A stretch of 61,900 bases of DNA, filler included, from Candidatus Zapsychrus exili (lineage in GTDB: Bacteria > Omnitrophota > Gorgyraeia > Zapsychrales > Zapsychraceae), in NCBI GenBank assembly GCA_030765585.1. It is 7 parts of 7 records of this genome, joined end to end, with 100 filler letters (N's around TTAATTAATTAA, not from the genome) between each part and the next. Parts side by side here need not be neighbours in the genome. Positions count along the whole stretch, not along the records: positions 9,305 to 15,975 come from JAVCCJ010000031.1; 6 more parts are not named here. One strand, 5' to 3'. The translations under genes were made by a program, and so were the position numbers. The notes beneath the pieces are model-generated. The model did not search any database. It was given only the letters and a program-made list of their open reading frames with translations, and was not told where the DNA came from. Of the stretch, positions 4,685-28,900 are shown piece by piece; position 1 is the stretch's first letter, and each line of letters starts with the position of its first letter.

Positions 4685-5639
4685 ACCTATATTTTCTCTT
4701 ATTCAATTCCCCGCTCTTTTCTAGAATACCTTTTTCAACAGCAATAGCTAAATCTCTTGTTGCACTTGTTGGCGAAATATTATTATGAACCCCAAGATAA
4801 TCCCCTCTATTAAATTCTTTGTCTCTAAAATGTTCTCTAGCCAAATCTAATCTAATCTCTGTTTGTTGATTTGATGGTCTGACCTGTTTAGTTAGTTCAA
4901 GAGTAGCTTCTTTTATAACCTCCAGCATAAATTGAATAAACGGAGTAGATTCACCCTGTTTTTGAGATTCTTGCAAAGCTAAATAATATTCCATTTGTTT
5001 ACGCTTTATAGCTGTTTCTATTGGAATATAGGCAAAAATCTCACGATAATTATACAACATGACTGATTGCCATAAACGTCCAATGCGTCCGTTACCGTCC
5101 ACGAAAGGATGAATAAATTCAAATTCATAATGAAAGATACTTGATTTAATCAATGGAGTTAAACCTTGTTCATCTTTCATAAAAGAAAAAAGATTGTCCA
5201 TAAGTTCAGGAACCATTGCAAACTTTGGAGCCATATGAACAATCTTGCCCTTAGACCCTACTCCAACATTGACTTTTCTTAATTTGCCAGAATCACCAAT
5301 CAAGCCATCCATCATAATTTTATGAGCATCTAATAATGAGTTTAGGCTTTCCGGCTTATATTTATGTAGCAAATCATAAGCCTTGATAGCATTCTTAACT
5401 TCTAATATATCTTTTTTAGGACCAACAACTTTTTTGTTATTAACAATATCAGTTACTTGGTCTACGCTTAAAGTATTGCCTTCGATTGCAAGACTTGATT
5501 GAATGGTGATAATTTGCGTATGTTTTCTAAGCTGGGGCTTGGGGGTGGGCAAAGCCAACCCCTCATATTTCCCCAACATAAGGAATATATCTTCACATAA
5601 ACTTAGTATTTCTTTTGTAATTGTATATGGTGAATTCAC
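4668..5639 (-). CDS. Fic-family protein (AMP transferase) with C-terminal HTH
   Basis: HPFVDGNGRIGR Fic motif and SSLAIEGN inhibitory motif. Confidence 0.93.
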   Translation of the reverse strand: MNSPYTITKEILSLCEDIFLMLGKYEGLALPTPKPQLRKHTQIITIQSSLAIEGNTLSVDQVTDIVNNKKVVGPKKDILEVKNAIKAYDLLHKYKPESLNSLLDAHKIMMDGLIGDSGKLRKVNVGVGSKGKIVHMAPKFAMVPELMDNLFSFMKDEQGLTPLIKSSIFHYEFEFIHPFVDGNGRIGRLWQSVMLYNYREIFAYIPIETAIKRKQMEYYLALQESQKQGESTPFIQFMLEVIKEATLELTKQVRPSNQQTEIRLDLAREHFRDKEFNRGDYLGVHNNISPTSATRDLAIAVEKGILEKSGELNKRKYRFAHEK

Positions 5640-6232
5640 ACTAAAACCCCTTTTTATTAAACCATCATTGTTAAACCAACATTGTTTGATAAAAGAATAA
5701 CATAGATGACCAAGAAATACAAGATTTAATGGTTTTCTATTTCAGAAGTAATGCTCTTCTCTTCTTCCGTAAACCGCTTTGTTTAACAATATCTCCATTG
5801 TCTGTTTGCATATCATTTGCAACCAACTCAAACAAACTCATATTCCTCCCTTATTTTATAAAAATTAACAAAAACATTTATCTTCTTTGTGCATATTTAT
5901 AAAGAACTATTTTAAAGCCCCTCTTCTTACCATTCAAAAAATTCTAAATACAACACAGAACGACTATACCAGTCTGTCCGTTTTCTTACCTTAATTTCTC
6001 CTTTTAACACTATTTAGCTTAAAGAATTCTTTTTTGCTGGTTTTAGGTAATTGAGCAGTTTTTTGTGTTTAATCGATCTATGGGTCAGTTTGACCTTTAA
6101 AAGGTCAGCTTGACCCTCTTCTACCTTATCTAGCTATATCCCAGATTGCGAAACAAGACTCCTTGTTTCTGTATTCTACTCTTATAAACATTGTTTTTAT
6201 GCTTTGTTTTTCAGTTTTTTAAACGATAACAA

Positions 6233-6283: not shown

Positions 6284-6360
6284 CCTATGGATAACAAGAT
6301 AAATCCTACGGATAACAGGGTAAACCCTATGGATAACAAGATAAATCCTACGGATAACAA
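6284..6360 (+). repeat. Iterons: 3.7 x 21-bp tandem repeats (putative oriV)
   Basis: CCTATGGATAACAAGATAAAT / CCTACGGATAACAGGGTAAAC / CCTATGGATAACAAGATAAAT / CCTACGGATAACAA; upstream of the rep operon. Confidence 0.85.
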
Positions 6361-7568: not shown

Positions 7569-8729
7569 ATGGATAACAAGGAGTTAGTTTTGAGTTCAAC
7601 TGATGTAAAAAAGATTGAGAAGAAATTTAAGACCAGAATGGAAGTAAATTTAGAAAAAATACCGTTTATTTCTTTTTTCAATTACAAAAATAAGAAAAAA
7701 ATAGAGGAAACTATGCGTTCTTCGAAAGGTGGGATACAGGTGTATTCTCAAGATTTGCCTGATGGATCTAAGCGTTCTATTAAGCTAGATGTTTCGATGA
7801 GTTATGGTTTACCTGTCAGTGAAGATCAAGATGTTTGGACGGTTGTTTCACACAAGATTAGTGAATACTGTTTTGAAAAGCAGGTTTGCCCAGAAACAAT
7901 TGAAATTAATATGAACTGTTTTGCAAAAATGATGAAAAAACAAATAACAGGACCATTTTATACAAACTTAGAGAATTCTTTGCATCGTTTGGCTGGTGTA
8001 ACTTTATATCATAATCAATTTATGCAAAAAAAAGAGAACAATAGTAAGTCTAATTTAGAATATGATGCTCAAAAAGGTATAAAAATCATTAATTCTGTTG
8101 CAGTTTTAAAAATAAAGAAAAATGGAAAAAGAATCCAAAATGTTGTTAGGATCGAGTTGCCTGCTTGGATCCGACAAAATTATGAGAATTTCTATACTTC
8201 TTATATAGATATTGATTTATATTTTCGCTTAAAACCAGGAAGAACACGCAGACTTTTTAAGCTTTTAGATGTTTATAGGTATAATCAAGAATATTTTATT
8301 GATTATAATAGATGCGATTCTATATTATTCCTAAGAGATCTTAAACATCGTTCAAAACGGAACGAAAAATTGAAATTAGCTTTAAATGAGCTTAAAAGAT
8401 TTAATTATGTTAAAGATTTTATTTTTGAAGAGTATGGAATAAAGGTATTTTTTAGTACAATTAAAAAAGCTTATAATAAGTCGTTAATGCTCAAGTTAAC
8501 GGAAGCAGACAATGAAACAGTAGATTTCTTAATGACGCATTTCAAAGAGCCAGAATCTAAAGCAATGTTTCGAAATATTGTTAGAGAATATCTACCCGAA
8601 AGTATAGTTCATTGTTTGGATCTCACAGATGAAAGTATTAAATATGAAGGTGTTAAAAAGACAAAAGGGGCAATATTTATGTATCATATTAATAAATATG
8701 GTCGTAAAAAGCAGGCCGTACTTTCATAA
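7569..8729 (+). CDS. Plasmid replication initiator protein (RepA/RPA-like)
   Basis: MEVNLEKIPF and YGLP..EDQDV motifs resembling RPA-type initiators, YFRLK...RRLFKLLD; adjacent iterons. Confidence 0.7.
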   Translation: MDNKELVLSSTDVKKIEKKFKTRMEVNLEKIPFISFFNYKNKKKIEETMRSSKGGIQVYSQDLPDGSKRSIKLDVSMSYGLPVSEDQDVWTVVSHKISEYCFEKQVCPETIEINMNCFAKMMKKQITGPFYTNLENSLHRLAGVTLYHNQFMQKKENNSKSNLEYDAQKGIKIINSVAVLKIKKNGKRIQNVVRIELPAWIRQNYENFYTSYIDIDLYFRLKPGRTRRLFKLLDVYRYNQEYFIDYNRCDSILFLRDLKHRSKRNEKLKLALNELKRFNYVKDFIFEEYGIKVFFSTIKKAYNKSLMLKLTEADNETVDFLMTHFKEPESKAMFRNIVREYLPESIVHCLDLTDESIKYEGVKKTKGAIFMYHINKYGRKKQAVLS

Positions 8730-9304: not shown

Positions 9305-9339
9305 CGCAAACTTTGGGAGCGACCTGAGAGTTCGAAGGA

Positions 9340-9445
9340 AGGGCAAGAATAGAATAAATAGATTGATTCAATATGGGTAATATGATAACATTAAAGCCTG
9401 AGTTAAGCAGCTTTGGTGGGAAGCCGAAGCTGCTTTCTTGTTTTT
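9340..9445 (+). promoter_or_regulatory. Repeated promoter-hairpin module, copy A
   Basis: TTGATT(9363)-N17-TAACAT(9386), then hairpin AAGCAGCTTTGG-tgggaag-CCGAAGCTGCTT and a T-rich tail. Confidence 0.75.
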
Positions 9446-9462
9446 AAAAGGAGAAGTATATA

Positions 9463-11091
9463 ATGCAAAACGTAAAACTAACTGTCAAAAATTATCGTTG
9501 TTTTTCAGAAGAAAATCCTGTATCTATAAATATAGATAAAGGTTTTACATCTTTCATAGGTCCAAATAATTCTGGTAAATCTTCAATCCTTAGATTAATA
9601 TATGAAATCAGAAGTATTCTTAACTATGTTACTCAACAAGGAAATGGAGGAAATTACATAGAAAACGAACCGCTATGCACATTTAATCTCGCAGAAAGTA
9701 TTGGTTTATTAGGTGTTCCAGATTTTGACGAGATATTCTGCAATTCTAACAGTTCAAATGTTGTACTTGAATTTAGCCTGAATCCTTACGAATTAAAAGA
9801 TTCTAAGTATCCGGTTTTAACAATGTTAAAATTTGAGTTTGAAAGAAAGCGCCCATATAAATGCTCTATATTTTACAAGTGGACACCAAGAATAGTAGAC
9901 AACCCCAGAGAAGGGCAGCATATTGTAACAAAGGAAGAAAATTTAATAAGAGGGGGCACCATAATAGCAAACTGCAGCCAAATCTTTACGACAATAAAAC
10001 AACTTGCTAATACCATCTACATAGGTGCATTTCGTAATGCAATCAACAAGGGTGCGGGTAAATATTTTGATATTGATATTGGAACAGGTTTTATATCTAC
10101 ATGGAATTCATGGAAAACGGGTTCGCTAAAAGAAAAAAATAGAAAAATCATTAGTGTCACTAATGATATAAGGCGTCTTCTAGGTTTTAAAACTTTAGAA
10201 ATTAGTGCTTCTGATAATAAAGAAACTCTGCAAATAACTATCGACGGCAAGCCATATCTATTAAGAGAAGTTGGTTCTGGCATAGCTCAACTAATTGTTG
10301 TATTAGCAAACGCTGCAATTCAAGAACCTGCTTATATTCTTATTGATGAGCCCGAACTAAATCTGCACCCGTCTTTACAATCAGACTTCCTTATGAGCCT
10401 TGCTGCATATGCAAAGGAAGGCATATTGTACGCAACACATTCTTTAGGGTTAGCTCGAGCACATTCAGAGAGAGTCTATTCTGTTAGAGTTGTAGACAAT
10501 AAACACATAGTAAGACTTTTAGAAAATACGCCACGGTATGCAGAATTTATAGGCGAAATGGGTTTTGCAAGCTATAAAGAGATGGGGTTTGAAGTTATAT
10601 TACTCGTTGAAGGCGTTCAAGACGTTAAAACATCAATTCAATTTTTAAGAAAATTGCATATAGACCATCAAGTTGTGGTTATCCCGCTTGGTGGTGACGC
10701 TCTAGCAAGCGGTGGTAGGGAACAAGAACTTGATGAACTTTTGAGAATTACAAAAAAAATATTTGCACTTGTCGATAGTGAACGAGGAGCTAAAGGACAA
10801 CCACCAAAGAAAGAGCGTGTAAGATTTGAAAAAGTATGCAAAACATTAGGCATAACAGCTTGCCTTACTGAGCGTAGAGCTATTGAAAACTATCTTAGTG
10901 GCAAAGCAATTAAAGCAGAGAAAGGACCTAAGTACAACGCCTTAGCTCCATATGAAAAACGTGGGAGCAATCCTTTGTCTTGGGGCAAGCCAGAAAATTG
11001 GCGTATTGCAGCTAGAATGGATTGGACCGAAATAGAATCAACAGATGTGGGCAAATTTTTTCTTACTCTAAAGAAAAAATTGCTACCTTAA
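9463..11091 (+). CDS. OLD-like ATP-dependent nuclease (ABC ATPase + TOPRIM), probable defence protein
   Basis: Walker A GPNNSGKS, ILIDEPELNLHP, ATHS, TOPRIM LLVEGVQD..LGG..LVDSE, ERRAIENY. Confidence 0.85.
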   Translation: MQNVKLTVKNYRCFSEENPVSINIDKGFTSFIGPNNSGKSSILRLIYEIRSILNYVTQQGNGGNYIENEPLCTFNLAESIGLLGVPDFDEIFCNSNSSNVVLEFSLNPYELKDSKYPVLTMLKFEFERKRPYKCSIFYKWTPRIVDNPREGQHIVTKEENLIRGGTIIANCSQIFTTIKQLANTIYIGAFRNAINKGAGKYFDIDIGTGFISTWNSWKTGSLKEKNRKIISVTNDIRRLLGFKTLEISASDNKETLQITIDGKPYLLREVGSGIAQLIVVLANAAIQEPAYILIDEPELNLHPSLQSDFLMSLAAYAKEGILYATHSLGLARAHSERVYSVRVVDNKHIVRLLENTPRYAEFIGEMGFASYKEMGFEVILLVEGVQDVKTSIQFLRKLHIDHQVVVIPLGGDALASGGREQELDELLRITKKIFALVDSERGAKGQPPKKERVRFEKVCKTLGITACLTERRAIENYLSGKAIKAEKGPKYNALAPYEKRGSNPLSWGKPENWRIAARMDWTEIESTDVGKFFLTLKKKLLP

Positions 11092-11097
11092 ATAAAA

Positions 11098-11220
11098 GGA
11101 CACACTACTTAATTCAGGCAGGGCAAAAATAGAATAAATAGATTGATTCAATATGGCGGATATGGTAGCATATTTACAGCCCTAACAGCTTGGGTGGAAA
11201 ACAGAAGCTGTTATTTTGTT
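11098..11220 (+). promoter_or_regulatory. Repeated promoter-hairpin module, copy B
   Basis: ACACTACTTAATTCAG, then TTGATT(11143)-N17-TAGCAT(11166), then hairpin AACAGCTT..AAGCTGTT and a T-rich tail. Confidence 0.75.
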
Positions 11221-11237
11221 AACAAAATAGGAAATAC

Positions 11238-13103
11238 TTGAATATGAAAATTATGTCATTTGAAATAAAAAATTTTCGTTCGATAAAAGATAGTGGTGCT
11301 TGCTACGTATCAGGTGATAAAATTACTATTTTAGCTGGTAAAAATGAGTCAGGTAAAACAGCGATATTAGAAGCTCTAGAGGATTTTAGCACAGAGAGGG
11401 AAATAAGGAAAGAGGCAATCAACATCCATAATCGAGAAGCCAAGCCTGAAATAGCAGTAACGTTTCAAATTGAAAAAAGGACTCTTAATGAAATTTTTGG
11501 CGAAATAAATCTTGCGATAAAAGCACCTAAAATAGTCAATGTGAAAATTATTAAAGATTATCCGGCAAAATATTCGTTTTCGGAAGAGACAATAAAATCA
11601 ATAGGCATAAAAGATGAGAGGCTCTTAAAGATCAAAGGGAAGGAAATAGCTAATTCTTACAAAAAGATTAAAGATATTCATGAAGAATTTCCACAGATTA
11701 GCGGTACTTTTCCAGAACTAAATCCAGACGATATTCTTAGCTTAAAGCCCCAACTTGAGAATTTTTTTAACGAGATAGAACCCAACTTAATACAAATCAC
11801 AAATGAAGAAAAAAAAGAGAATTTTGCACAAGGAATTAAAAATATAGTAACTCTAATTATAGAGATAGAAGTGATACAAAGCGCAGAAGAAAAACTCTTA
11901 AATGAAATAAAGCAGTGGATACCAAATTTTATTTTGTTTAGTTCTTTTAATGATATCTTTCCGTCAAAAATCCCTTTCTCTGAAGCTGTAGATAATGACT
12001 TGATTAAGGATTTATGTGATGTTAGTAATTTAAACTTAGCACTAATTCAATCCGATGAGACACCTTCTAAAATGAAACATAAGGAGAACCTAAACTTAAA
12101 AATAAAAGAAGATTATAGCAAGTTTTGGTCTCAGGATTTTACTAACTTGCATATAGATTGGGATTCTCAAAACTTATATTTCTATATTAAAGATGAAGAT
12201 GGGGAATTCTATCCTCATGATTATAGGAGCAGAGGAAAACAATGGCATTTAGCATTTTATATAAGAATTTCTGCAAGAGCAAAAGAAGACGTGCCCAATA
12301 TTATATTAATTGATGAGCCAGGACTATTTCTTCACGCTAAGGCTCAAAAAGACATTCTCAAGAAACTTGAATATGAAACTAAGAATGTTCCAATAATTTT
12401 TTCCACACATTCACCATTTTTAATTAAAACAGACAATCTTAGTAGGATTCGCTTGATTTCACGTACACCTAAAAGAGGTACTGTCATTTCAGATAAAATA
12501 CATAAAGGCGCTGATAAAGAAACACTCACTCCAATAATTACAGCAATAGGTTTAGACTTATCTATAGGGCTTGATGTAGCAAAAGATAACAATATTATTC
12601 TTGAGGGAATAACAGATTACTACTACTTATTAGCACTTAAAGAATTACTGGGGTTTAAATTTAAAAAAAGTGTGCATTTTATTCCTGGAGTTGGAGCGGA
12701 TAAGCTTAATCTTTTAGTTTCATTAATGATTGGGTGGAAATTAACTTACTGTGCAGTTTTTGATAACGATAAAAAAGGAAGGGATGCGAACGCTAAGCTA
12801 TTAAAAGCTTTCAAACAAGCAGATATCAAAACAATGCTAGTGTCTGAAAATAGCGGTGAAGAAATAGAGGATTTATTTACAAAAGAAGATTTTGTGCAAT
12901 ACGTTTTGGATGAAAAACCAGACCCAGCTTTAACCAAGATGAAAAATTCCGAAATCGTTAAACAGAAACACAAAAACTACGATACGGCCTTGCTAGCAAA
13001 GTTATTTTATGAAAAAATAAACAACGGGAGCATCTCTCTTACGGTAGAGACTAAAGAGCGCTTTGAAAAGCTTTTAAGCAAAATAAACATAGTGATGTTC
13101 TAA
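11238..13103 (+). CDS. OLD-like ATP-dependent nuclease (ABC ATPase + TOPRIM), probable defence protein
   Basis: IKNFRSI, Walker A GKNESGKT, ILIDEPGLFLH, STHSPF, TOPRIM ILEGITD..GA..VFDND, EIEDLF. Confidence 0.85.
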   Translation: MNMKIMSFEIKNFRSIKDSGACYVSGDKITILAGKNESGKTAILEALEDFSTEREIRKEAINIHNREAKPEIAVTFQIEKRTLNEIFGEINLAIKAPKIVNVKIIKDYPAKYSFSEETIKSIGIKDERLLKIKGKEIANSYKKIKDIHEEFPQISGTFPELNPDDILSLKPQLENFFNEIEPNLIQITNEEKKENFAQGIKNIVTLIIEIEVIQSAEEKLLNEIKQWIPNFILFSSFNDIFPSKIPFSEAVDNDLIKDLCDVSNLNLALIQSDETPSKMKHKENLNLKIKEDYSKFWSQDFTNLHIDWDSQNLYFYIKDEDGEFYPHDYRSRGKQWHLAFYIRISARAKEDVPNIILIDEPGLFLHAKAQKDILKKLEYETKNVPIIFSTHSPFLIKTDNLSRIRLISRTPKRGTVISDKIHKGADKETLTPIITAIGLDLSIGLDVAKDNNIILEGITDYYYLLALKELLGFKFKKSVHFIPGVGADKLNLLVSLMIGWKLTYCAVFDNDKKGRDANAKLLKAFKQADIKTMLVSENSGEEIEDLFTKEDFVQYVLDEKPDPALTKMKNSEIVKQKHKNYDTALLAKLFYEKINNGSISLTVETKERFEKLLSKINIVMF

Positions 13104-13240
13104 AAAAGCACCCTCAATCCATGCCTCTTAAGCAAGCCCTTATTATTGTTCCGATTTAAATTACCTAAAACTTCTATCGTCTCATTATACAAAGCAATTT
13201 AAAGAGGCTTGACTTAAGTCTCTTTATAATCAAAAAATAA

Positions 13241-13371
13241 GGGGAGACACTACTTAATTCAGCAAGCATAAGAGTAGCACAATAAATAGATTGATTCAAT
13301 ATGGCGGATATGGTAACATATAAGTCTAAGTTAAGCAGCTTTGGAGAACAACCAAAGTTGCTTTTTTGTTT
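13241..13371 (+). promoter_or_regulatory. Repeated promoter-hairpin module, copy C
   Basis: ACACTACTTAATTCAG, then TTGATT(13291)-N17-TAACAT(13314), then hairpin AAGCAGCTTTGG-agaacaa-CCAAAGTTGCTT and a T tract. Confidence 0.75.
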
Positions 13372-13536
13372 GAAAGAGGGGAAAAGAAAACCAGATTTGT
13401 TAAAAAAAGATATAAAATTCACGAAAATTCGTGCTTAGGGTACCCCTTTTAGGGTCGCCCCCTTTATATCACTAAACAAAATTGGAAACACTTCTTAAAT
13501 ATAAATATTTTATATACGGCTAAAACAGGGGATAAA

Positions 13537-14673
13537 ATGAAAAAACGCACCGAAATAGATGATAGTATAATGAGCACCACTTTAAAGTTTAGTGACGATA
13601 GTGATATGGAGCAAACGCAAGTCGGCATACCCAAAGAAGAAAGAGTACTTAGAACACAAGCTTACGATAAAAGCGTAAGTGATATTGTAGACATGATTAA
13701 AAGCAACGACGTAATACTAAACCCAGAATATCAAAGGAATTATGTTTGGAATAGTAAAAAAGCATCTTTGCTCGTAGAATCAATCCTACTTAATGTGCCA
13801 ATACCCATTATTTATGTTTCTGAAGAAGAAGATGGTCGTTGGAGTGTAGTAGATGGATTACAACGGCTGAATTCCCTAAGAAGATACTTTGGCAACGAAT
13901 TTAAGCTAACCGGACTTGAAGTGCTTCAAGAATTAAATGGCTCGCAATATTATAAGCTAAACCCAAAAGCTCAAAGACTGCTAAGGAACGGGATTCTCAG
14001 GATAATTCTAATCTTCAAGGAATCTAATCCTGAAATCAAATATGACATATTCATGAGACTTAACAAAAGCTCCATACAACTCAATGATCAAGAATTGCGA
14101 AATTGTCTATACAGGGGGGAATTTAATGATTTACTAAAAAACTTAGCTTTAAATTCAAATTTTTTAGCTATGCTACGTTTAAAAAAACCTCACAAAAGAA
14201 TGCGTGATTCTGAAATGATTCTACGATACCTTGCTGTTGCAGATGATTATAATAGTGAACATGGCAAAATGAAAACATACAAAGGTAGCATGAGAACATT
14301 TTTAAATACGTATATGGGCGAAATGAAAAACGCATCGAGTGACACTATTGTTATGTTAAAAGATAGGTTCGAAAATACCATACTTAAAGTTCATGCCGTT
14401 TTTGGGAATAATGCTTTCCGTAGAATTGATAGTAGCGGCAAATTTGACAGTGCGGTCAACAGAGCTATTGCAGATTTCATAATGACAACTTTTGAAAATT
14501 TTGAATACGATGCTCTTGTTTCAAATAAACAAAAAATCATTAGCGCTCTGAGAAACATAATAATGGAAGATACAAAATTTTCTGAATCAGTCAGCTTTGG
14601 TACTTCTGATACACAAAAACTGGAATATCGCTTGTCAGTATGGTCTAAACAATTGCAAAGTTTGCTAAAATAA
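13537..14673 (+). CDS. DUF262 (ParB/Srx-like) domain protein
   Basis: PEYQRNYVW, SLLVESILLNVPIP, VVDGLQRL, IFMRLN motifs. Confidence 0.9.
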   Translation: MKKRTEIDDSIMSTTLKFSDDSDMEQTQVGIPKEERVLRTQAYDKSVSDIVDMIKSNDVILNPEYQRNYVWNSKKASLLVESILLNVPIPIIYVSEEEDGRWSVVDGLQRLNSLRRYFGNEFKLTGLEVLQELNGSQYYKLNPKAQRLLRNGILRIILIFKESNPEIKYDIFMRLNKSSIQLNDQELRNCLYRGEFNDLLKNLALNSNFLAMLRLKKPHKRMRDSEMILRYLAVADDYNSEHGKMKTYKGSMRTFLNTYMGEMKNASSDTIVMLKDRFENTILKVHAVFGNNAFRRIDSSGKFDSAVNRAIADFIMTTFENFEYDALVSNKQKIISALRNIIMEDTKFSESVSFGTSDTQKLEYRLSVWSKQLQSLLK

Positions 14674-14683
14674 TGTTTTACAT

Positions 14684-15379
14684 ATGAAAATTGATTTTGA
14701 ATCTGAAAAAAAATTTCGCGAAGCGGTTGAAGAGGTGGAACTCCTAACATTTGTAGCTGAAGCATACGAAAGGGAAGAATTGTTATATGTTGTATGTAAT
14801 AAATCCGCCCTGTTATTATTAATTGCAAAATTCGAAGCTTTTGTTGTGAACATTATATGCGAATATATTGTCCTTATTAACAAATTAAATTTAGGCACTA
14901 GGCATATCCCCACCGCTCTAAAGCTCAAACACACATTCAGTAAAATAGGTAACGTTGACTACCTAAAACATCCCCATAAAACTACTGAGGCTATAAAAAT
15001 ATTTCAAGATATCGGCTTGCTATGGATAAAAGAAAAAAAATTTAATAAGCTGCAAATAGATTCTAAATTTAGTTTTGGTAAACATGGTAGCAAAGAAATT
15101 GACAATCTATTTCATGAAACCGGATTACATGATATTTTCTCAAATATAAAAATATACAAAAAAACATCTTCGGCGCTTGGTTCAAGTCATAACGAAAAAA
15201 TAGATTTTAAAGGCATGCTAAATTCAGTAGTTTGTATAAGAAATGGCATTATTCATGAAGATGCAACTCCTAGTTTAACTCATCTTGATATAAATGAATA
15301 TACAACCAGGTTTATGCAGTTCAGTTATAAGCTAACTATTTTTTTAAGAAAAAAAATAGTACAACTGGCAAAACATTAG
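14684..15379 (+). CDS. HEPN-domain nuclease (MAE_28990/RiboL-PSP-like), partner of DUF262
   Basis: SALLLLIAKFEAFV helix and Rx4H motif RNGIIH; 10 bp after the DUF262 gene. Confidence 0.75.
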   Translation: MKIDFESEKKFREAVEEVELLTFVAEAYEREELLYVVCNKSALLLLIAKFEAFVVNIICEYIVLINKLNLGTRHIPTALKLKHTFSKIGNVDYLKHPHKTTEAIKIFQDIGLLWIKEKKFNKLQIDSKFSFGKHGSKEIDNLFHETGLHDIFSNIKIYKKTSSALGSSHNEKIDFKGMLNSVVCIRNGIIHEDATPSLTHLDINEYTTRFMQFSYKLTIFLRKKIVQLAKH

Positions 15380-15699
15380 CTTGAAAACATAAATATAAGG
15401 CATAAAGCAAAAAAGGCTTAACTTTGAGCCTCTTTATAATCATATAGCAAGAGAAAATATGTGGTGAAAATAGGCCTTATTTATCATATCCGGTATCATG
15501 ATCTTAGCCTGCATTATCAGCACTACCATTGATTGAATAAAAGGGAAGACAGGGCCTTTTGGGCCTAATCCAATGGACTGGTGGGGCTGCCGGAATCTTT
15601 ACAATCCTGCTGCTTTTGCTGATGTACTGGCTCAGCAAGAAACTCTTCTAAGCACAAAAAACCCACTTGACAATACAGAAGATATAATGTATATTAGTT

Positions 15700-15975
15700 A
15701 TGGGCATATGCTTAAAAGAACTAGGGGGTATGGTAGTGGGTAGAAAGCCAATAGGGAGACCTATAAAGACAAGATACATCAAAGCAGAACCGGAGATAAT
15801 ACAGTTCAGCCCAAGAGGCCGGCCTGGAAGACCTGATGAGGTTGAGCTTTCTATGGATCAATATGAGGCATTAAGATTAGCGGATCATAAGATGGTGCCG
15901 CATAACGCTGCTGGCAAGATCATGGGAATCTCGCGCCAGACATTTGAAAGAATACTTAAGAAAGCCAGAAACAAA
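15700..15975 (+). CDS. DUF134 DNA-binding protein, 3' truncated, start uncertain
   Basis: GRP.K.R.I...P....FSP.G..EALRLAD...AGKIMGISRQTFERILKKAR. Confidence 0.8.
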
Positions 15976-22904: not shown

Positions 22905-25900
22905 ATGGATTTCGCTAGATATCATATAAAAAATAGGTATTTTATTAAGAAAATAAGCCTTTTTGTACTATTTTTCTTCTGTTTTGGCCTTATTGTCCCT
23001 CCAAGACCCTCTGCTCAGCCAATTCAAGCCCAAATTATAGCTACAAACTCTGGGGTTAACCCTACTTTAATTAAGGGATTAAATGTATTTCCTGATAATC
23101 CCTTTAGGTTTGATTTTATTATTGATCGGGGGCTAGGTTCTATGGCCGAGGGTCTAGAGTTTAAAGTCGAATCTGAGAAGTTAATAAAATATTTCCTTGC
23201 TGCCTTAACCGTACCCGAGGATGATCTGTGGGTTAATTTGTCCCCAATTGAAGAAGACAGAGTGATATCGGAAGACTTTGGAAAAACAGAGATGGGACGC
23301 CAGCTTCTAATCCAAGATTACCTTTTAAAACAAGTAACATCATCTTTAATGCATCCAGAAGGCGAGTTGGGTAAGAAGTTTTGGAATGAAATATATGGTC
23401 AGGCACAAAATAGATACGACTTATCAGACATAGAAACAGATGTATTAAGTAAGGTTTGGATTATGCCATCTGAAGCAGAGGTTTATGAACACGATAATAC
23501 TGTGTTTATAATTAGCGCTAAATTAAAAGTATTTCTTAAGGAAGGATATGAAGAATCTAACATTATAAAGGAAATAATTATACCGGAATTAGAGCGTCAA
23601 GTTAATGAAGATGAGACCTTTGCGCCGCTTCGCCAGGTCTATCATTCGCTCATACTAGCTGCCTGGTATAAACAGGTGTTTAAAACAAGTATTATTAATA
23701 AAATTTATTCCGATAAAAATAAAATAGCAGGTGTTAATCCAAATGATCCTGAGTTTAAAGAAAAGATATATCAGGATTATATGAAGACGTTTAAAGAGGG
23801 CGTATATAACCATATAAAAGAAGAGTATGACCCTAAAGCTAAATCAATTGTTCCTCGTAAGTATTTCTCTGGTGGTGTTTTTGGAAAAGTGACCCCAGTA
23901 CTTTCTATAAATAAAAATAGTCCAGACTCTGCAATGATAAGTGACGCAATCAAACATTCTAAAATTGTTCAAACTGTTATTAATCCATTTAAAAGAAAAA
24001 GAAAAGTTGTTGAGGATCCATATCCTCTTAAGCAAGATGAGCACATTTTTATAAGCATAGGAGACGTACAAGTTGCTATTAAAAAATATGATAAGAAAGA
24101 TAGCAATTCACATTTTCGTGATAATAAAAAAGATATAATCTTGTCGGAATCTGATATTAAAGCTTTTGAAGATAGAGGTTTTAAGCGGCACAGAATAAAA
24201 AGCGCTCTAAGGTTTTTACCGAAAACCCAGAAGCTTTATCATAAAATAAATTCCAAAAAAGAAGGCAGGTTAAATGCTTTTTTAATGATCAAAAAAGACA
24301 TTGAGCAAGTCATAGAAGCTAAACAAAAACAGGGCTTAAATGAAATAGTTGTTTATGAGATAGGTCCAGGAGAAGACTCAAAAGAATTTTTTGAAATAGT
24401 TAAGATGTTTAATGATGTGATTAAACAAAAGGCAGGTTTTGGCTGGATGTTAAAAATGGTAGTTTTGGATTATGATCGGAGCATCTTAGATAGTTTATTT
24501 GATAGTATTACTAGTAAAGAGAATAATATTTTATCAAATTTCTTGGATATAAACTTAGAAGTTGAATTGCATGCTGTAGATGTGTCAGATGTAAATGACG
24601 TCAGAGCATTGGCTAAGAAATTAAAGAAAATGAAGGAGCCGAAAGAATATGTTGATTATATGTTTGCTCGTAATGTTCTTTTAGCACAGGACATGGTTCA
24701 GGACGGACTTTTTGACTTTTTGCAGGATACTTCAAAAAAGGATATTCAAAGTTATATTTATTATACGGGTCTTTTTAAAAATTACGGATTAAAAAATATC
24801 TTCAATTCGTATCTTTCTCTTAAGAATATAGTAGGGTATTTTAGCAATGTTGGCACTAAGCTTATTGTTGAGCCAGCTTCTTTCTCAAGAGGAAAAATAG
24901 AAAAAGTTTTAAGAATCCCAGGCGCAGAAATATTAACAGCTAATCATTATGCAATTGATAATAAGTCTTTAAAACATGGGTTAAGGGATATAGGTACAGG
25001 AATTCATGAGATTAAGAATACAAAGATTATCGGAAGGAAGGGTATTGATTATTTTATTGAGCAGCCACAAGATAATGCAATGACAGCCGATGTTAATAGT
25101 TTTATTTTCTCAGAAAATAAAATTGAAGAGATAAAAAATTTATTGGATTCTAAGAATCAATACTCTTCACATCAAAAAGAGGAATACTTTAAGCATTTTC
25201 TATTATCAGATTTAGAGGAGATATTCTCTAAGAATTCTATATTTACGTCTTTGACAGGAAGTTTATTTAAGGAACTTTTAGTCACAGTAAAAGATATTTC
25301 TTATGATCAGTTTGACTGGATTGTTTATCGACTTTTTGAAATACAAAGACATGAAAAACAAATAAAATTTTCAAGTGTTAAAGAGCTTATAGAAACAATT
25401 TTGTCAGAAACGCCACCATTTTCTTTTGAGCATGATAGTTATGGTCCTAAATATTATGGAGTAGACAGGCTTGATGATTTTTTTGCTTGGAGTAGCGGAA
25501 CATCTTCTATGATTATTGATCAGTTTAAAAGCATGAAAAACATAGATTGGCCCAAAAAAGAAATTTTAGAGATATCTCCAGGCCAGGACGGAAAGATAAT
25601 TGAATTTTTGAAAAATAAAGGAGCAAAAGTATCTGCAGTTGATAGAAGTTTTAGGGGCGCTCGCTTAGCAAGACAAAAGTATGGGGTAGAAGCTAAAGTT
25701 ACGGATATTTTGGAGTTACTAGATAATCTTAAAAACAAGAAATATGATGTTATTGTGGCAGCATCTGTTTTGTCATATGTTATAGAAGATAACGCTTATA
25801 GATTGATAGAAGAAAATGTTGATAAGGTTATTAAAAGCATTAAAGGCTCTTTAAAAGAGGGAGGTTTGTTTTTCTGCACTTTTCATTTTGATGAATCTGA

Positions 25901-28900
25901 AAATGATGGGAAAGTTTATGATCATCGTCCATCTATGAAAGTACTAGACAAATTTAGAGCCGCAGGATTTGAAGTTGTAAGAAATATAAACAACAGAGAA
26001 CTTTTGATGTTCAGGAATACTCCAGAAGACTCTGTGATGATAACCGATGTTAATAGTTTTGTTTTCTCAGAAAATAAAATTGAAGAGATAAAGAATTTAC
26101 TGGATTCTAAGAATCAATATTCTCTACATCAAAAAGAGGAATATTTTAAGCATTTCCTATTATCAGATTTAGAGGAGATATTTTCTAAAAATTCTGTATT
26201 TGCGTCTTTGGCAGGAAGTTTATTTAAGGAGCTTTTAGTCACAGCAAAAGATATCTCTTATAATCAGTTTGATTGGGTTATTTATCGACTTTTTGAGATA
26301 CAAAGACATGAAAAACAAATAAAATTTTCAAGTGTTAAAGAGCTTATAGAAACAATTTTATCAGAAACGCCACCATTTTCTTTTGAGCATGATAGTTATG
26401 GACCCAAATATTATGGAGCAGACAGGCTTGATGATTTTTTTGTTTGGAGTAGCGGAACGTCTTCTATGATTATTGATCAGTTTAAAGGTATGAAAAACAT
26501 AGATTGGCCCAAAAAAGAAATTTTAGAGATATCTCCAGGTCAGGACGGAAAGATAATTGAATTTTTGAAAAATAAAGGAGCAAAAGTATCTGCAGTTGAT
26601 AGAAGCTTTAGGGGCGCTCGCTTAGCAAGACAAGAACATGACATAGAGTCTAAAGTTGCTGATATTTTAGAATTGTCTAAGACTCTCGGAGGCAAGAAAT
26701 ATGATGTTATCATGGCAGCATCTGTTTTGAAATATGTTATAGAAGACAATACTGGCAAATGGGTAGAAGAAAATGTTGATAAAGTTATTAAAAGCAGTAA
26801 AGGCTCTTTAAAAGAAGGAGGTTTGTTTTTCTGTACTTTTCATTTTGATGAATCTGAAAATGATGGGAAAACTTATGATCATCGTCTACCTATGAAAGTA
26901 CTAGACAAATTTAAAGCCGCAGGATTTGAAGTTGTAAGAAATATAAACAACGGAGAACTTTTGATGTTTAGGAATATTACAGAAGATAAAGCAATGATGG
27001 CAGATAAAAAGAAAGATGATCTTTTAGCGTTTTTCAAAAAATATAATGGCCCAATATATTATCCCGCAGGAGGAGTTGACTTGCGTTCTGTAAAGTTATT
27101 GGCTCATAGATTTCCAAAAGTTAATGAATTTATAATAGCAGATCCTTTTTATAAAGAGCAGGCTGAACCTATTTTTTATCTTAATAATATGAAATATACG
27201 AAAGATAATATGTCTGAAATATTAGAAAATATTTTATCAAATTTTGCAATGAGCGTAGCTTTAGGTCGAACAGAAATTATGGGGGAAATTATTAGCGAAG
27301 AGAACAAAGAGCTTAAAATAACTATTTTATTTAATGATCATAAAAAGGAGTATTTAAGTGATAGGAAAATAACTATACGATATCTTGTTAAAAAGTTTGA
27401 GAAATTAGAGGATAAGTTTGATGTTGTGTATGTCAGGATGCCAGGTGCAGGAGGAGATTTGTCTTGGGAAAGTAAATTTTGGGAGAATATTAAAGAACAA
27501 GTTTCTTCTGGTGGAAAGCTTTTGGTGAGTAGTAAGCATACAACTAGGCCATTCGAGGATCTTTTTACTTATCAGGCAGAATTTAAGAATCCTACTTCAA
27601 CATCAGGTAGCTTTTTTGTTTATGACAATGCGATGGTGGCAGAAAAACAAGGAATAAATTTCAAGGATGAAGGATTAAGAGATAAAGAGGTGTCAGATAA
27701 TGCGATGGTGATAGGACCAGAGACTAAATTGTTAGAGGAAATAGGTTTAAAGCTAGAAGATGTCTTGATTGAATTTGTAGAAGCAGAAAAAGGAACAGAA
27801 TTCTGGGGTTCAGAAGGATTTGTAGTTTTTTTAAAGGGCAAAATCGAGGATAAAAGTAACAAAGAAATTATTATGAGAAAATTAGGTCGTATGCTTGGCT
27901 TTAGCCATTCGGCGGTTGTTCAAGGATTAAATAATATTTTAAAAACGAATGGAATACAAATTAATAAAGAAAATGCAATAGCAGAAGCGTATGAACTTTT
28001 AGAGAAAGAGAAAGCCAGAGAGTATTTGCATAATATAACTAGACAAGTGTATGGAAAGCGTTCTTTTAATGAGATAGCAGTTAGTCAAAATTTAAGGGAA
28101 AAGGCTGAAATTTTAGAGAGCATAAGTTTAAAGCTAGAGGATGTCTTAATTGAATTTGTAGAAGTTGAAAAAGGAACAAAATTCTGGGGACCAGATGGAT
28201 TTGTGGCTTTTGTTCAAAGAAAAGCAAAGGATAATTTAACTATTCAACAATTAGCAAAAATATTTAATCTTAATGAAGAGGAGATATCGCAAGGTCTTAA
28301 AGAAGATTCTGTCATGAAAGATTTAAAACCAAAGAGTATTGTTTTTATTTCTGAAAGAAATAATTTTGGATTAAAGACAGAAGGGTATTTATCGCGCATT
28401 TCTACAACAAATCATAAAGGAAAAATAAATAAAAATGATAATGCGATGGTGGCAGATAGAAAAGCGGAATATTCTAAAATTATGAAAGAAGTTCTTCAAG
28501 AAGAAAATATGTTAAATGAATATGGCCAGATAAAAGATATAGAGCAGGCCGCTAAGCTTAATAATCAATTTTATAAGAAAAGGAAGGGCGAGAATGGTAC
28601 TAATAAAATATTAGTTGCTTATAATGCAGGTTCTTTGAATATGGATAAAGCTAGGCCACGTGGAACGATATTGGCACAAGGTATAGCAAGGGATTTAGGT
28701 TTTATATCTGATGATTTATGGAAAAAGCTTTCAGATAAGAAAGAAATTGTAAAAGAAGCGCATAGAAAATTGCTTCAAGAAGTTCTTAAAAAAGAGAAGA
28801 TGTTGGATGAAAAAGGAAAAATAAAGGACATCGAGAATGCCAATAAGCTGATAAATCAATTTTATATAGATAGGAATGGCGAAAAAGGTATTAATAAGGT

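Follow-up and report, generated by a model that had tools for sequence, protein, structure and literature searches.

The DNA analysed here, called the window below, is a 61,900-nucleotide stretch of joined contigs from the Candidatus Zapsychrus exili assembly GCA_030765585.1 (genome G000; other genomes, contigs and loci carry G, C and L numbers), and the finding is confined to one 6,671-bp contig, C96 (JAVCCJ010000031.1, window 9305-15975). C96 carries two OLD-like genes, a DUF262-HEPN gene pair and the start of a DUF134 gene (Table 1), and a copy of the same promoter-hairpin module lies upstream of each OLD-like gene and of the DUF262-HEPN pair. In each copy TTGATT is followed, 17 bp on, by TAACAT (copies A and C) or TAGCAT (copy B). 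Three such copies had been predicted at these positions and all are indeed present, as are the finer details of that original prediction: copies B and C have 35 identical bp in common, ACACTACTTAATTCAG stands upstream of both, and copy B begins ~10 nucleotides (nt) after the OLD1 stop codon. Copy C and the start of DUF262 are separated by ~170 nt, in which a transposon-end remnant lies; C96 begins at window 9305, and nothing upstream of copy A is visible beyond that point. Chance is excluded as the source of the similarity (pairwise BLAST E 1e-11 to 1e-14 among the copies in a 2.04-Mb genome). Across all 129 contigs of G000, the module is confined to C96 (three full copies) and C62 (two full copies and two right halves); the next profile match outside these two contigs has an E value of 0.66, and a covariance model agrees.

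Anatomy of the module and its cargo on C96

Comparison of the copies defines the module as a predicted σ70-type promoter with an extended −10 element, followed by a covarying terminator-like hairpin and a purine-rich Shine-Dalgarno (SD) tract. We base the promoter assignment on comparative conservation across copies, not on a consensus scan. The anatomy shown by 20 aligned copies includes an invariant TTG, T−12 and T−7 (20/20 each), A−11 and the extended TG in 19/20, and a 17-bp spacer without gaps, while positions −10 and −9 vary. Such a pattern is expected of a σ70 promoter, and the promoter that had been proposed is upheld by this promoter-like conservation. The plain consensus scan made no call at the three promoters, which match 8 of 12 positions against a threshold of 9. 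A palindromic operator over the −35 element (ATTGA-T-TCAAT) was considered and set aside, as it is lost in diverged copies.

The hairpin had been likened to an intrinsic terminator, and its stem covariation supports a terminator-like element: 5 of 13 pairs are altered on both sides, and 0-1 of 500 shuffles equal the observed value, with slid controls lower, a statistic that is inflated by the relatedness of the sequences. A 52-nt loop insertion keeps and extends the stem; the subfamily with this self-complementary insert comprises L009, L013, L014, L023, L027, L028 and the start of L055. Most copies have 7-8 T within 9 nt after the hairpin. Terminators were called at the hairpins of copies A and C and not at that of copy B, which is weaker (−10.6 kcal/mol versus −19.6 and −14.9 kcal/mol for the other two). 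The T tract is followed by the purine-rich tract, a putative SD where a gene starts directly; in copy A and several other copies an SD and ATG come directly after the module.

The two OLD-like proteins can be aligned with each other at the ATPase motifs only. OLD1 has no relative at E ≤ 1e-40 among the 400 other genomes of the phylum, and its relatives listed have 43-61% identity, the few named ones belonging to other phyla; because of this absence and these relatives, the comparison points to a horizontal gain of OLD1. The pairing of DUF262 with a PF18735 HEPN domain is the one listed for the PD-T4-2 defence system (available text of PMC10952713), while no PADLOC model matched the HEPN protein. 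The C96 genes, putative anti-phage units, resemble PD-T4-2, Menshen NsnA and stand-alone OLD nucleases in the DUF262-PF18735 pair and in the ABC-ATPase and TOPRIM motifs of both OLD-like proteins, but the OLD genes here have no adjoining Gabija helicase or other partner gene.

Table 1. Features of contig C96, in window coordinates (TIR, terminal inverted repeat; aa, amino acids)
Feature	Position	Strand	Remarks
Repeated spacer piece upstream of copy A	9305..9345	+	Cut by contig start; same piece before last module of L024/L025
Module A	9345..9462	+	AT-rich UP-like tract; −35 9363-9368; extended −10 (TG-A-TAACAT) 9386-9391; hairpin 9405-9435; T tract to 9445; SD AGGAG 9449-9453
OLD-like ABC-ATPase + TOPRIM protein 1 (OLD1), 542 aa	9463..11091	+	
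Left-type TIRYT repeat, GGACACACTACTTAATT	11098..11114	+	Before module B
Module B	11124..11243	+	−35 11143-11148; −10 11166-11171; weakened hairpin ~11184-11212; weak T tract
OLD-like ABC-ATPase + TOPRIM protein 2 (OLD2), 619 aa	11244..13103	+	
Second repeated terminator-like hairpin, GGCTTGACTT family	13200..13227	.	Copy upstream of DUF134 in 5 loci
Left-type TIRYT repeat upstream of module C	13241..13259	+	23/25 columns identical to the L116 TIR
Module C	13272..13380	+	−35 13291-13296; −10 13314-13319; hairpin 13333-13363; T tract; purine-rich linker
Right-facing remnant of second TIRYT end family	13404..13464	+	After copy C
DUF262 / GmrSD_N protein, 378 aa	13537..14673	+	Best PADLOC matches NsnA, PD-T4-2_A
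RiboL-PSP-HEPN protein (PF18735)	14684..15379	+	
Terminator-like hairpin	15410..15435	.	Conserved right border of variable region
Promoter TTGACA-17-TATATT, operator-like palindrome and DUF134 gene	15667..15975	+	Palindromic site 15700-15715; gene cut by contig end

A variable island next to dif

The genome searches show that the module is restricted to one lineage: strong matches occur only in family f19, mainly in genus g62, of an Omnitrophota order other than that of G000. With BLAST, matches at E ≤ 0.001 were obtained in 12 of 401 genomes and were strong in G063 and G117 only. With a covariance model, 6 of the 16 genomes of that other order matched (strongly in G063, G151, G128 and G420), as did 5 of 150 genomes in the class, G000 included. 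An exact-pattern scan of the genomes returned a single contig, from G420, assigned to the class of G000. The 40 relatives of G000 gave no convincing match, merely two of 19-25 nt, and two exact patterns had no match in viral contigs. The metagenome scan with exact patterns yielded 19 loci, 12 of which (on 10 contigs) hold the true module, L018 being covered only through the overlapping L017; the remaining seven were dropped as chance matches to the core without the rest of the module. Full-text literature searches showed no paper on the module, and the available text of an Omnitrophota genome preprint (10.64898/2026.06.07.730766) contains neither ‘dif’ nor ‘integron’ as a whole word.

The locus is a hypervariable island by the terminus of the chromosome. 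C96, C62, L017, L024/L025 and G063:C6 have a DUF134 flank in common and almost no cargo in common, a comparison that shows both the locus and its variable content. Next to DUF134 lies a dif-like 11-6-11 site (in C62, L016/L017, L024/L025 and G063:C6; C96 ends inside DUF134), and dusB comes next where the contig runs on (L017, L024/L025 and G063:C6). The left flank of C96 is shared with the last module of L025, a locus with five full modules (C96 positions 1-146 are 86% identical to L025 over 150 nt), and every intervening gene differs. Variable gene content at a recurring locus, as foreseen for a cassette-like array, is thus found across related contigs. In G063, the end of contig C19 and the start of contig C6 both fall within a module, suggesting an island of ~40 kb. 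In the salt-lake runs X1 and X2, contigs join the module to the right border across different DNA, and bins covering cargo had a depth of 0-4, compared with 29-75 in the four bins with module or DUF134 cores; each depth is a sum over organisms and no measure of copy number. Each locus has a single dif-like site, at the right border only, rather than the dif sites between cargo units that characterise pdif modules and integrative mobile elements exploiting Xer (IMEX). Three other f19 genomes (G422, G423 and G425) have the dif-like site and no module match in the stretches fetched.

The DUF134 protein of C96 is 94% identical to that of G063 and 51% identical to the dif-linked copy of G000 itself (on C80); its best match in relatives of G000 is at 47-62%, and G000 has no close dusB orthologue (best 31%). 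Because the DUF134 identities favour G063 and a close dusB is lacking in G000, C96 and C62 are probably mis-binned alleles from co-occurring g62-type organisms, and C96 is probably a rare allele of the island. Such contigs can be mis-binned, and the DUF134-dif flank offers a guide to their assignment.

The modules had been linked to defence units, but a specificity for such units is not supported. Of the 23 genes that come first downstream of a copy, only about 5 are known defence genes (two OLD, DUF262, a helicase-nuclease and SIR2) and four are plainly non-defence (an FMN reductase flavoprotein, a cation efflux protein, DUF2157 and a Cache domain protein), while the others match no family or an ambiguous one, in a tally in which some small open reading frames (ORFs) were unscanned. 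Some copies precede small membrane proteins. The dif-proximal part of the island is rich in defence-like genes, including restriction-modification, dGTPase-like, AbiEii, FRG, kinase and metallo-beta-lactamase-fold genes.

The DUF134-dif pairing recurs (L143-L171; also G000:C80 ~24600-25100 and L137 (C62) 7826-8604). Among 29 loci from the order of G000, 26 have DUF134 no more than 1.5 kb from a dif-like site, and a palindrome like ATGAGCATATGCTCAT is nearby in 27 of 29. The pairing is conserved, and the palindrome is a probable autoregulatory operator. In C62 alone among the alleles, the border terminator and DUF134 are separated by a LAGLIDADG endonuclease gene of opposite orientation (L137, 7399-7776). 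A second repeated spacer piece, the ACCGCAAGGGGAATG family, is present in 12 copies (L137 (C62) 5818-5992, L025, L055, L059 and L028) and is often joined to an apparent 3' stump of a nuclease gene. Transposase genes stand just upstream of a module in L025 (17471-18565, minus strand; an insertion-sequence transposase with HTH_38 and rve domains) and in L028 (2934-4066; a pair of insertion-sequence transposase genes, presumably IS3-like).

Transposon ends and allele breakpoints

The motif ACACTACTTAATT, noted in the original prediction before copies B and C, is identifiable as a TIRYT terminal repeat, the end of a Y1/HUH transposase element. TIRYT terminal repeats have the form GGGGWSAS (Di Nocera 2013, available text of PMC3733652), and subclass 2.1 of the TnpA-Y1 transposases is the class matching them (Quentin 2018, available text of 10.1101/279083). 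The ends found here are of the GGGG[AT][CG]A[CG] type, with the window copies 1-2 bases off consensus. The repeat before module B agrees with the L116 TIR in 22 of 25 aligned columns and with the end of a TIRYT gene in L117 in 20 of 25, and the remnant after copy C agrees in 47 of 63 columns with the reverse complement of the upstream end of a Y1 gene in L093 (G063:C2). The identity of the TIRs is shown by the Y1 (PF01797) genes that the same repeats flank in inverted orientation (L117, L083/L085/L087 and L093). Five genomes have 1-6 such genes each, several of them bracketed by inverted repeats, and a cognate Y1 gene was found in f19 genomes for three of the four TIR families; none was found for the fourth (GGGGTCAGAGT). 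A linked Y1 transposase had been named as something to look for, and the link was found through the end repeats next to modules.

The right-type ends are associated with the module. A strict right-type end lies within 140 nt after 15 of 32 module copies, with none reversed; the corresponding figures are 2.7% for random windows and 4 of 48 for spacers without a module (Fisher p 1e-4). The copies in this count are not independent, but four TIR families are involved. The strict left motif precedes 4 of 26 copies. Measured from the T tract, the TIR ends of the four families lie 29-115 nt downstream, without a single conserved junction. In L009/L023, one module stands inside a complete inverted TIR pair (TIR > module > TIR).

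Pairwise comparison of blocks, from which L013, L016, L018 and L024 were left out as overlaps or duplicates, places some allele differences at these same features. Between L017 and L025, a block of 94% identity starts at a module and stops 10 nt inside the right TIR, where L025 has an extra gene and module, and a block of 99% identity stops exactly at the left TIR edge. After a methylase of a shared type come different nucleases, and a full or half module follows each of them.

TIRs of these families also occur apart from the promoter module. In L116 (G128:C55, 13-1197) an exact TIRYT inverted pair encloses a 361-aa putative glycosyl-hydrolase-like gene (weak DUF4015 match), which makes this unit a candidate passenger-carrying non-autonomous TIRtron. 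Solo TIR ends in the same orientation, without the module, are found in accessory arrays of L117 (G117:C71, 2817-5244), L118 (G063:C28) and L122 (G420:C43), and likewise in L139 and L140 (G000:C102 and C118). The array in L117 has three solo-type ends running up to an intact Y1 gene.

Readings of the module

Phages of the T4 type have promoter-early stem-loops (PeSLs), ~100-bp AT-rich tracts with a σ70 promoter, a stem-loop and an SD that lie between variable genes in the hyperplastic region and are proposed recombination joints; in one PeSL class, the stem-loop is downstream of the −10 element (available text of PMC2839356 and PMC4122927). The module likewise has a σ70 promoter, stem-loop and SD within ~100 bp between variable genes, but it is chromosomal and beside dif rather than in a T4-type hyperplastic region (with the viral contigs free of matches, as noted above), its promoter is non-consensus and nested in TIRYT ends, and its activity and any mini-circles are hypothetical. 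We lean somewhat towards reading the modules as PeSL-like promoter-terminator-SD joints that are nested in TIRtron remnants and serve as exchange points in the dif-adjacent island.

On this reading, the layout would be TIR > promoter > hairpin > SD > gene slot > TIR, with TIR ends often bracketing or following the module. The hairpin, ~10-45 nt past the predicted start site, would terminate transcription constitutively and so shield each unit from read-through arising upstream, and only a fraction of the module's own transcripts would reach the next gene, giving a low, leaky expression that would suit toxic defence cargo. Genes could be gained, lost or swapped through recombination between copies, which offer ~100 bp of homology. 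As with PeSLs, a module-gene circle crossing into a resident module could give module-gene-module, and TIRYT cutting at TIR ends perhaps assists the exchange. The module has multiplied only inside the hypervariable island next to DUF134-dif-dusB in family f19. Transcription, termination and recombination are thus all predicted steps.

Several results weigh against this reading. The change between L017 and L025 falls at a module, but more distant g62 genomes have many block ends far from modules, and other repeated spacer pieces recur in the island, which makes the module one joint among several. TIR ends are also present on other contigs, and a search of the island loci with one query gave neither a Y1 gene nor a fragment of one, such as an autonomous TIRtron would contain. 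The module copies are related, and their counts overstate independence. Tetranucleotide composition did not decide the host of C96 and C62.

If TIRYT activity itself drives gene gain, the module would be part of a gene-capture platform, an HUH analogue of the integron: a non-autonomous TIRtron with promoter and SD, in which a Y1 transposase acting in trans inserts foreign genes between the SD and the right TIR. The complete TIR-enclosed module of L009/L023, the passenger gene inside an exact TIR pair in G128:C55, the insertion 10 nt inside the right TIR in L025 relative to L017, the presence of 1-6 Y1 genes per genome in five genomes and the TIR-promoter-gene-TIR layout shared with TIRtrons all speak for such a platform. 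We nevertheless consider it unlikely, with no Y1 gene in the island loci, no single junction among the four end families and the left TIR before so few copies; binding and cleavage assays of TIRYT are proposed future work in the available text of PMC3733652. A broader form of the idea, in which a TIRtron turned expression platform and trans-acting Y1/HUH transposases would assemble defence and envelope genes into an integron-like library near the end point of replication, with neither a tyrosine recombinase nor attC, is in our view similarly doubtful. Known TIRtrons resemble the arrangement here in that GGGGWSAS-type repeats flank Y1 genes and are scattered solo or in pairs, and identical or near-identical ends flank the module; in contrast, the available texts of PMC3733652 and 10.1101/279083 describe no promoter-terminator cargo within TIRs, no passenger genes and no dif-side array. 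TnpA-REP proteins, Y1 transposases of subclass 2.1, lie beside variable prochlorosin gene arrays, with causation unproven (available text of 10.1101/2020.03.09.984088), but there the transposase genes are inside the arrays, while here only their ends are found.

A terminator-like hairpin directly downstream of a promoter, together with the defence-rich dif-proximal cargo, would also fit an attenuator regulated such that toxic defence genes stay silent unless infection triggers antitermination. This is improbable because many copies face a TIR end and no gene, and because the consensus fold consists of the terminator helix alone, with no second conserved helix predicted. Moreover, copies have two unrelated leader types, and they also precede the FMN reductase, cation exporter, DUF2157, Cache and small membrane protein genes. 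Predicted terminator strength does not clearly separate gene-facing from TIR-facing copies. We give equally little credence to the module as a repeated small-RNA gene (~45-55 nt, or ~100 nt in long-loop copies) carried on TIR elements, such as an antitoxin or transposase-associated RNA, with downstream genes using their own promoters. The promoter and terminator would delimit a discrete short transcript, and covariation and loop insertion leave the stem intact, but leader and loop vary freely without a conserved unpaired motif, and the SD and ATG that directly follow copy A and several others do not fit. Copy A has a weak match to Rfam SpF01 (E 0.026) at 35.5 bits, below the gathering cut-off of 55 for membership; no Rfam match reached the gathering score in 8 loci, and two loci bearing additional copies gave none at E ≤ 2.

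Integrons and clusters of attC sites lacking integron integrases (CALINs) are co-oriented, variable, defence-rich arrays with a repeated joint (attC, IntI). The island is likewise a co-oriented array of variable single-gene units with a repeated joint (73 of 77 long ORFs in seven island loci are on the module strand), and the cassette-like part of the integron-like array that had been proposed holds; membership among integrons does not. A promoter lies in every joint, none of 20 full copies has the RYYYAAC...GTTRRRY boxes of attC, and no IntI scored above the TIGR02249 cut-off in G000, G063, G151, G128 or G420 (metagenome-assembled genomes 86-97% complete), a test without a positive control, since none of 14 control genomes passed either. 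The earlier report of no attC consensus or integrase visible on the contig agrees with these results, and we find a true integron or CALIN scarcely credible.

Under the favoured reading of PeSL-like joints, a PeSL-like design is placed on a bacterial chromosome and physically tied to the ends of TIRYT, a transposase class for which the available texts of PMC3733652 and 10.1101/279083 report no activity test. The empty TIR-module-TIR unit and the filled alleles from the same habitat provide a defined substrate for the question of HUH gene capture, and the island is a source of candidate defence genes without a family match.

Three further repeats were noted. In G000:C66 (L141), a small accessory contig that holds a further DUF134 gene, a different repeated spacer of ~27-64 nt occurs in three copies, at 787-849, 1747-1838 and 5575-5631. 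Elsewhere in the window, contig C94 has three tandem copies with a 21-bp period at 6284-6359, unrelated to the module, and contig C97 has a 2,799-aa ORF at 22905-31304 with internal repeats spaced 291-957 bp.

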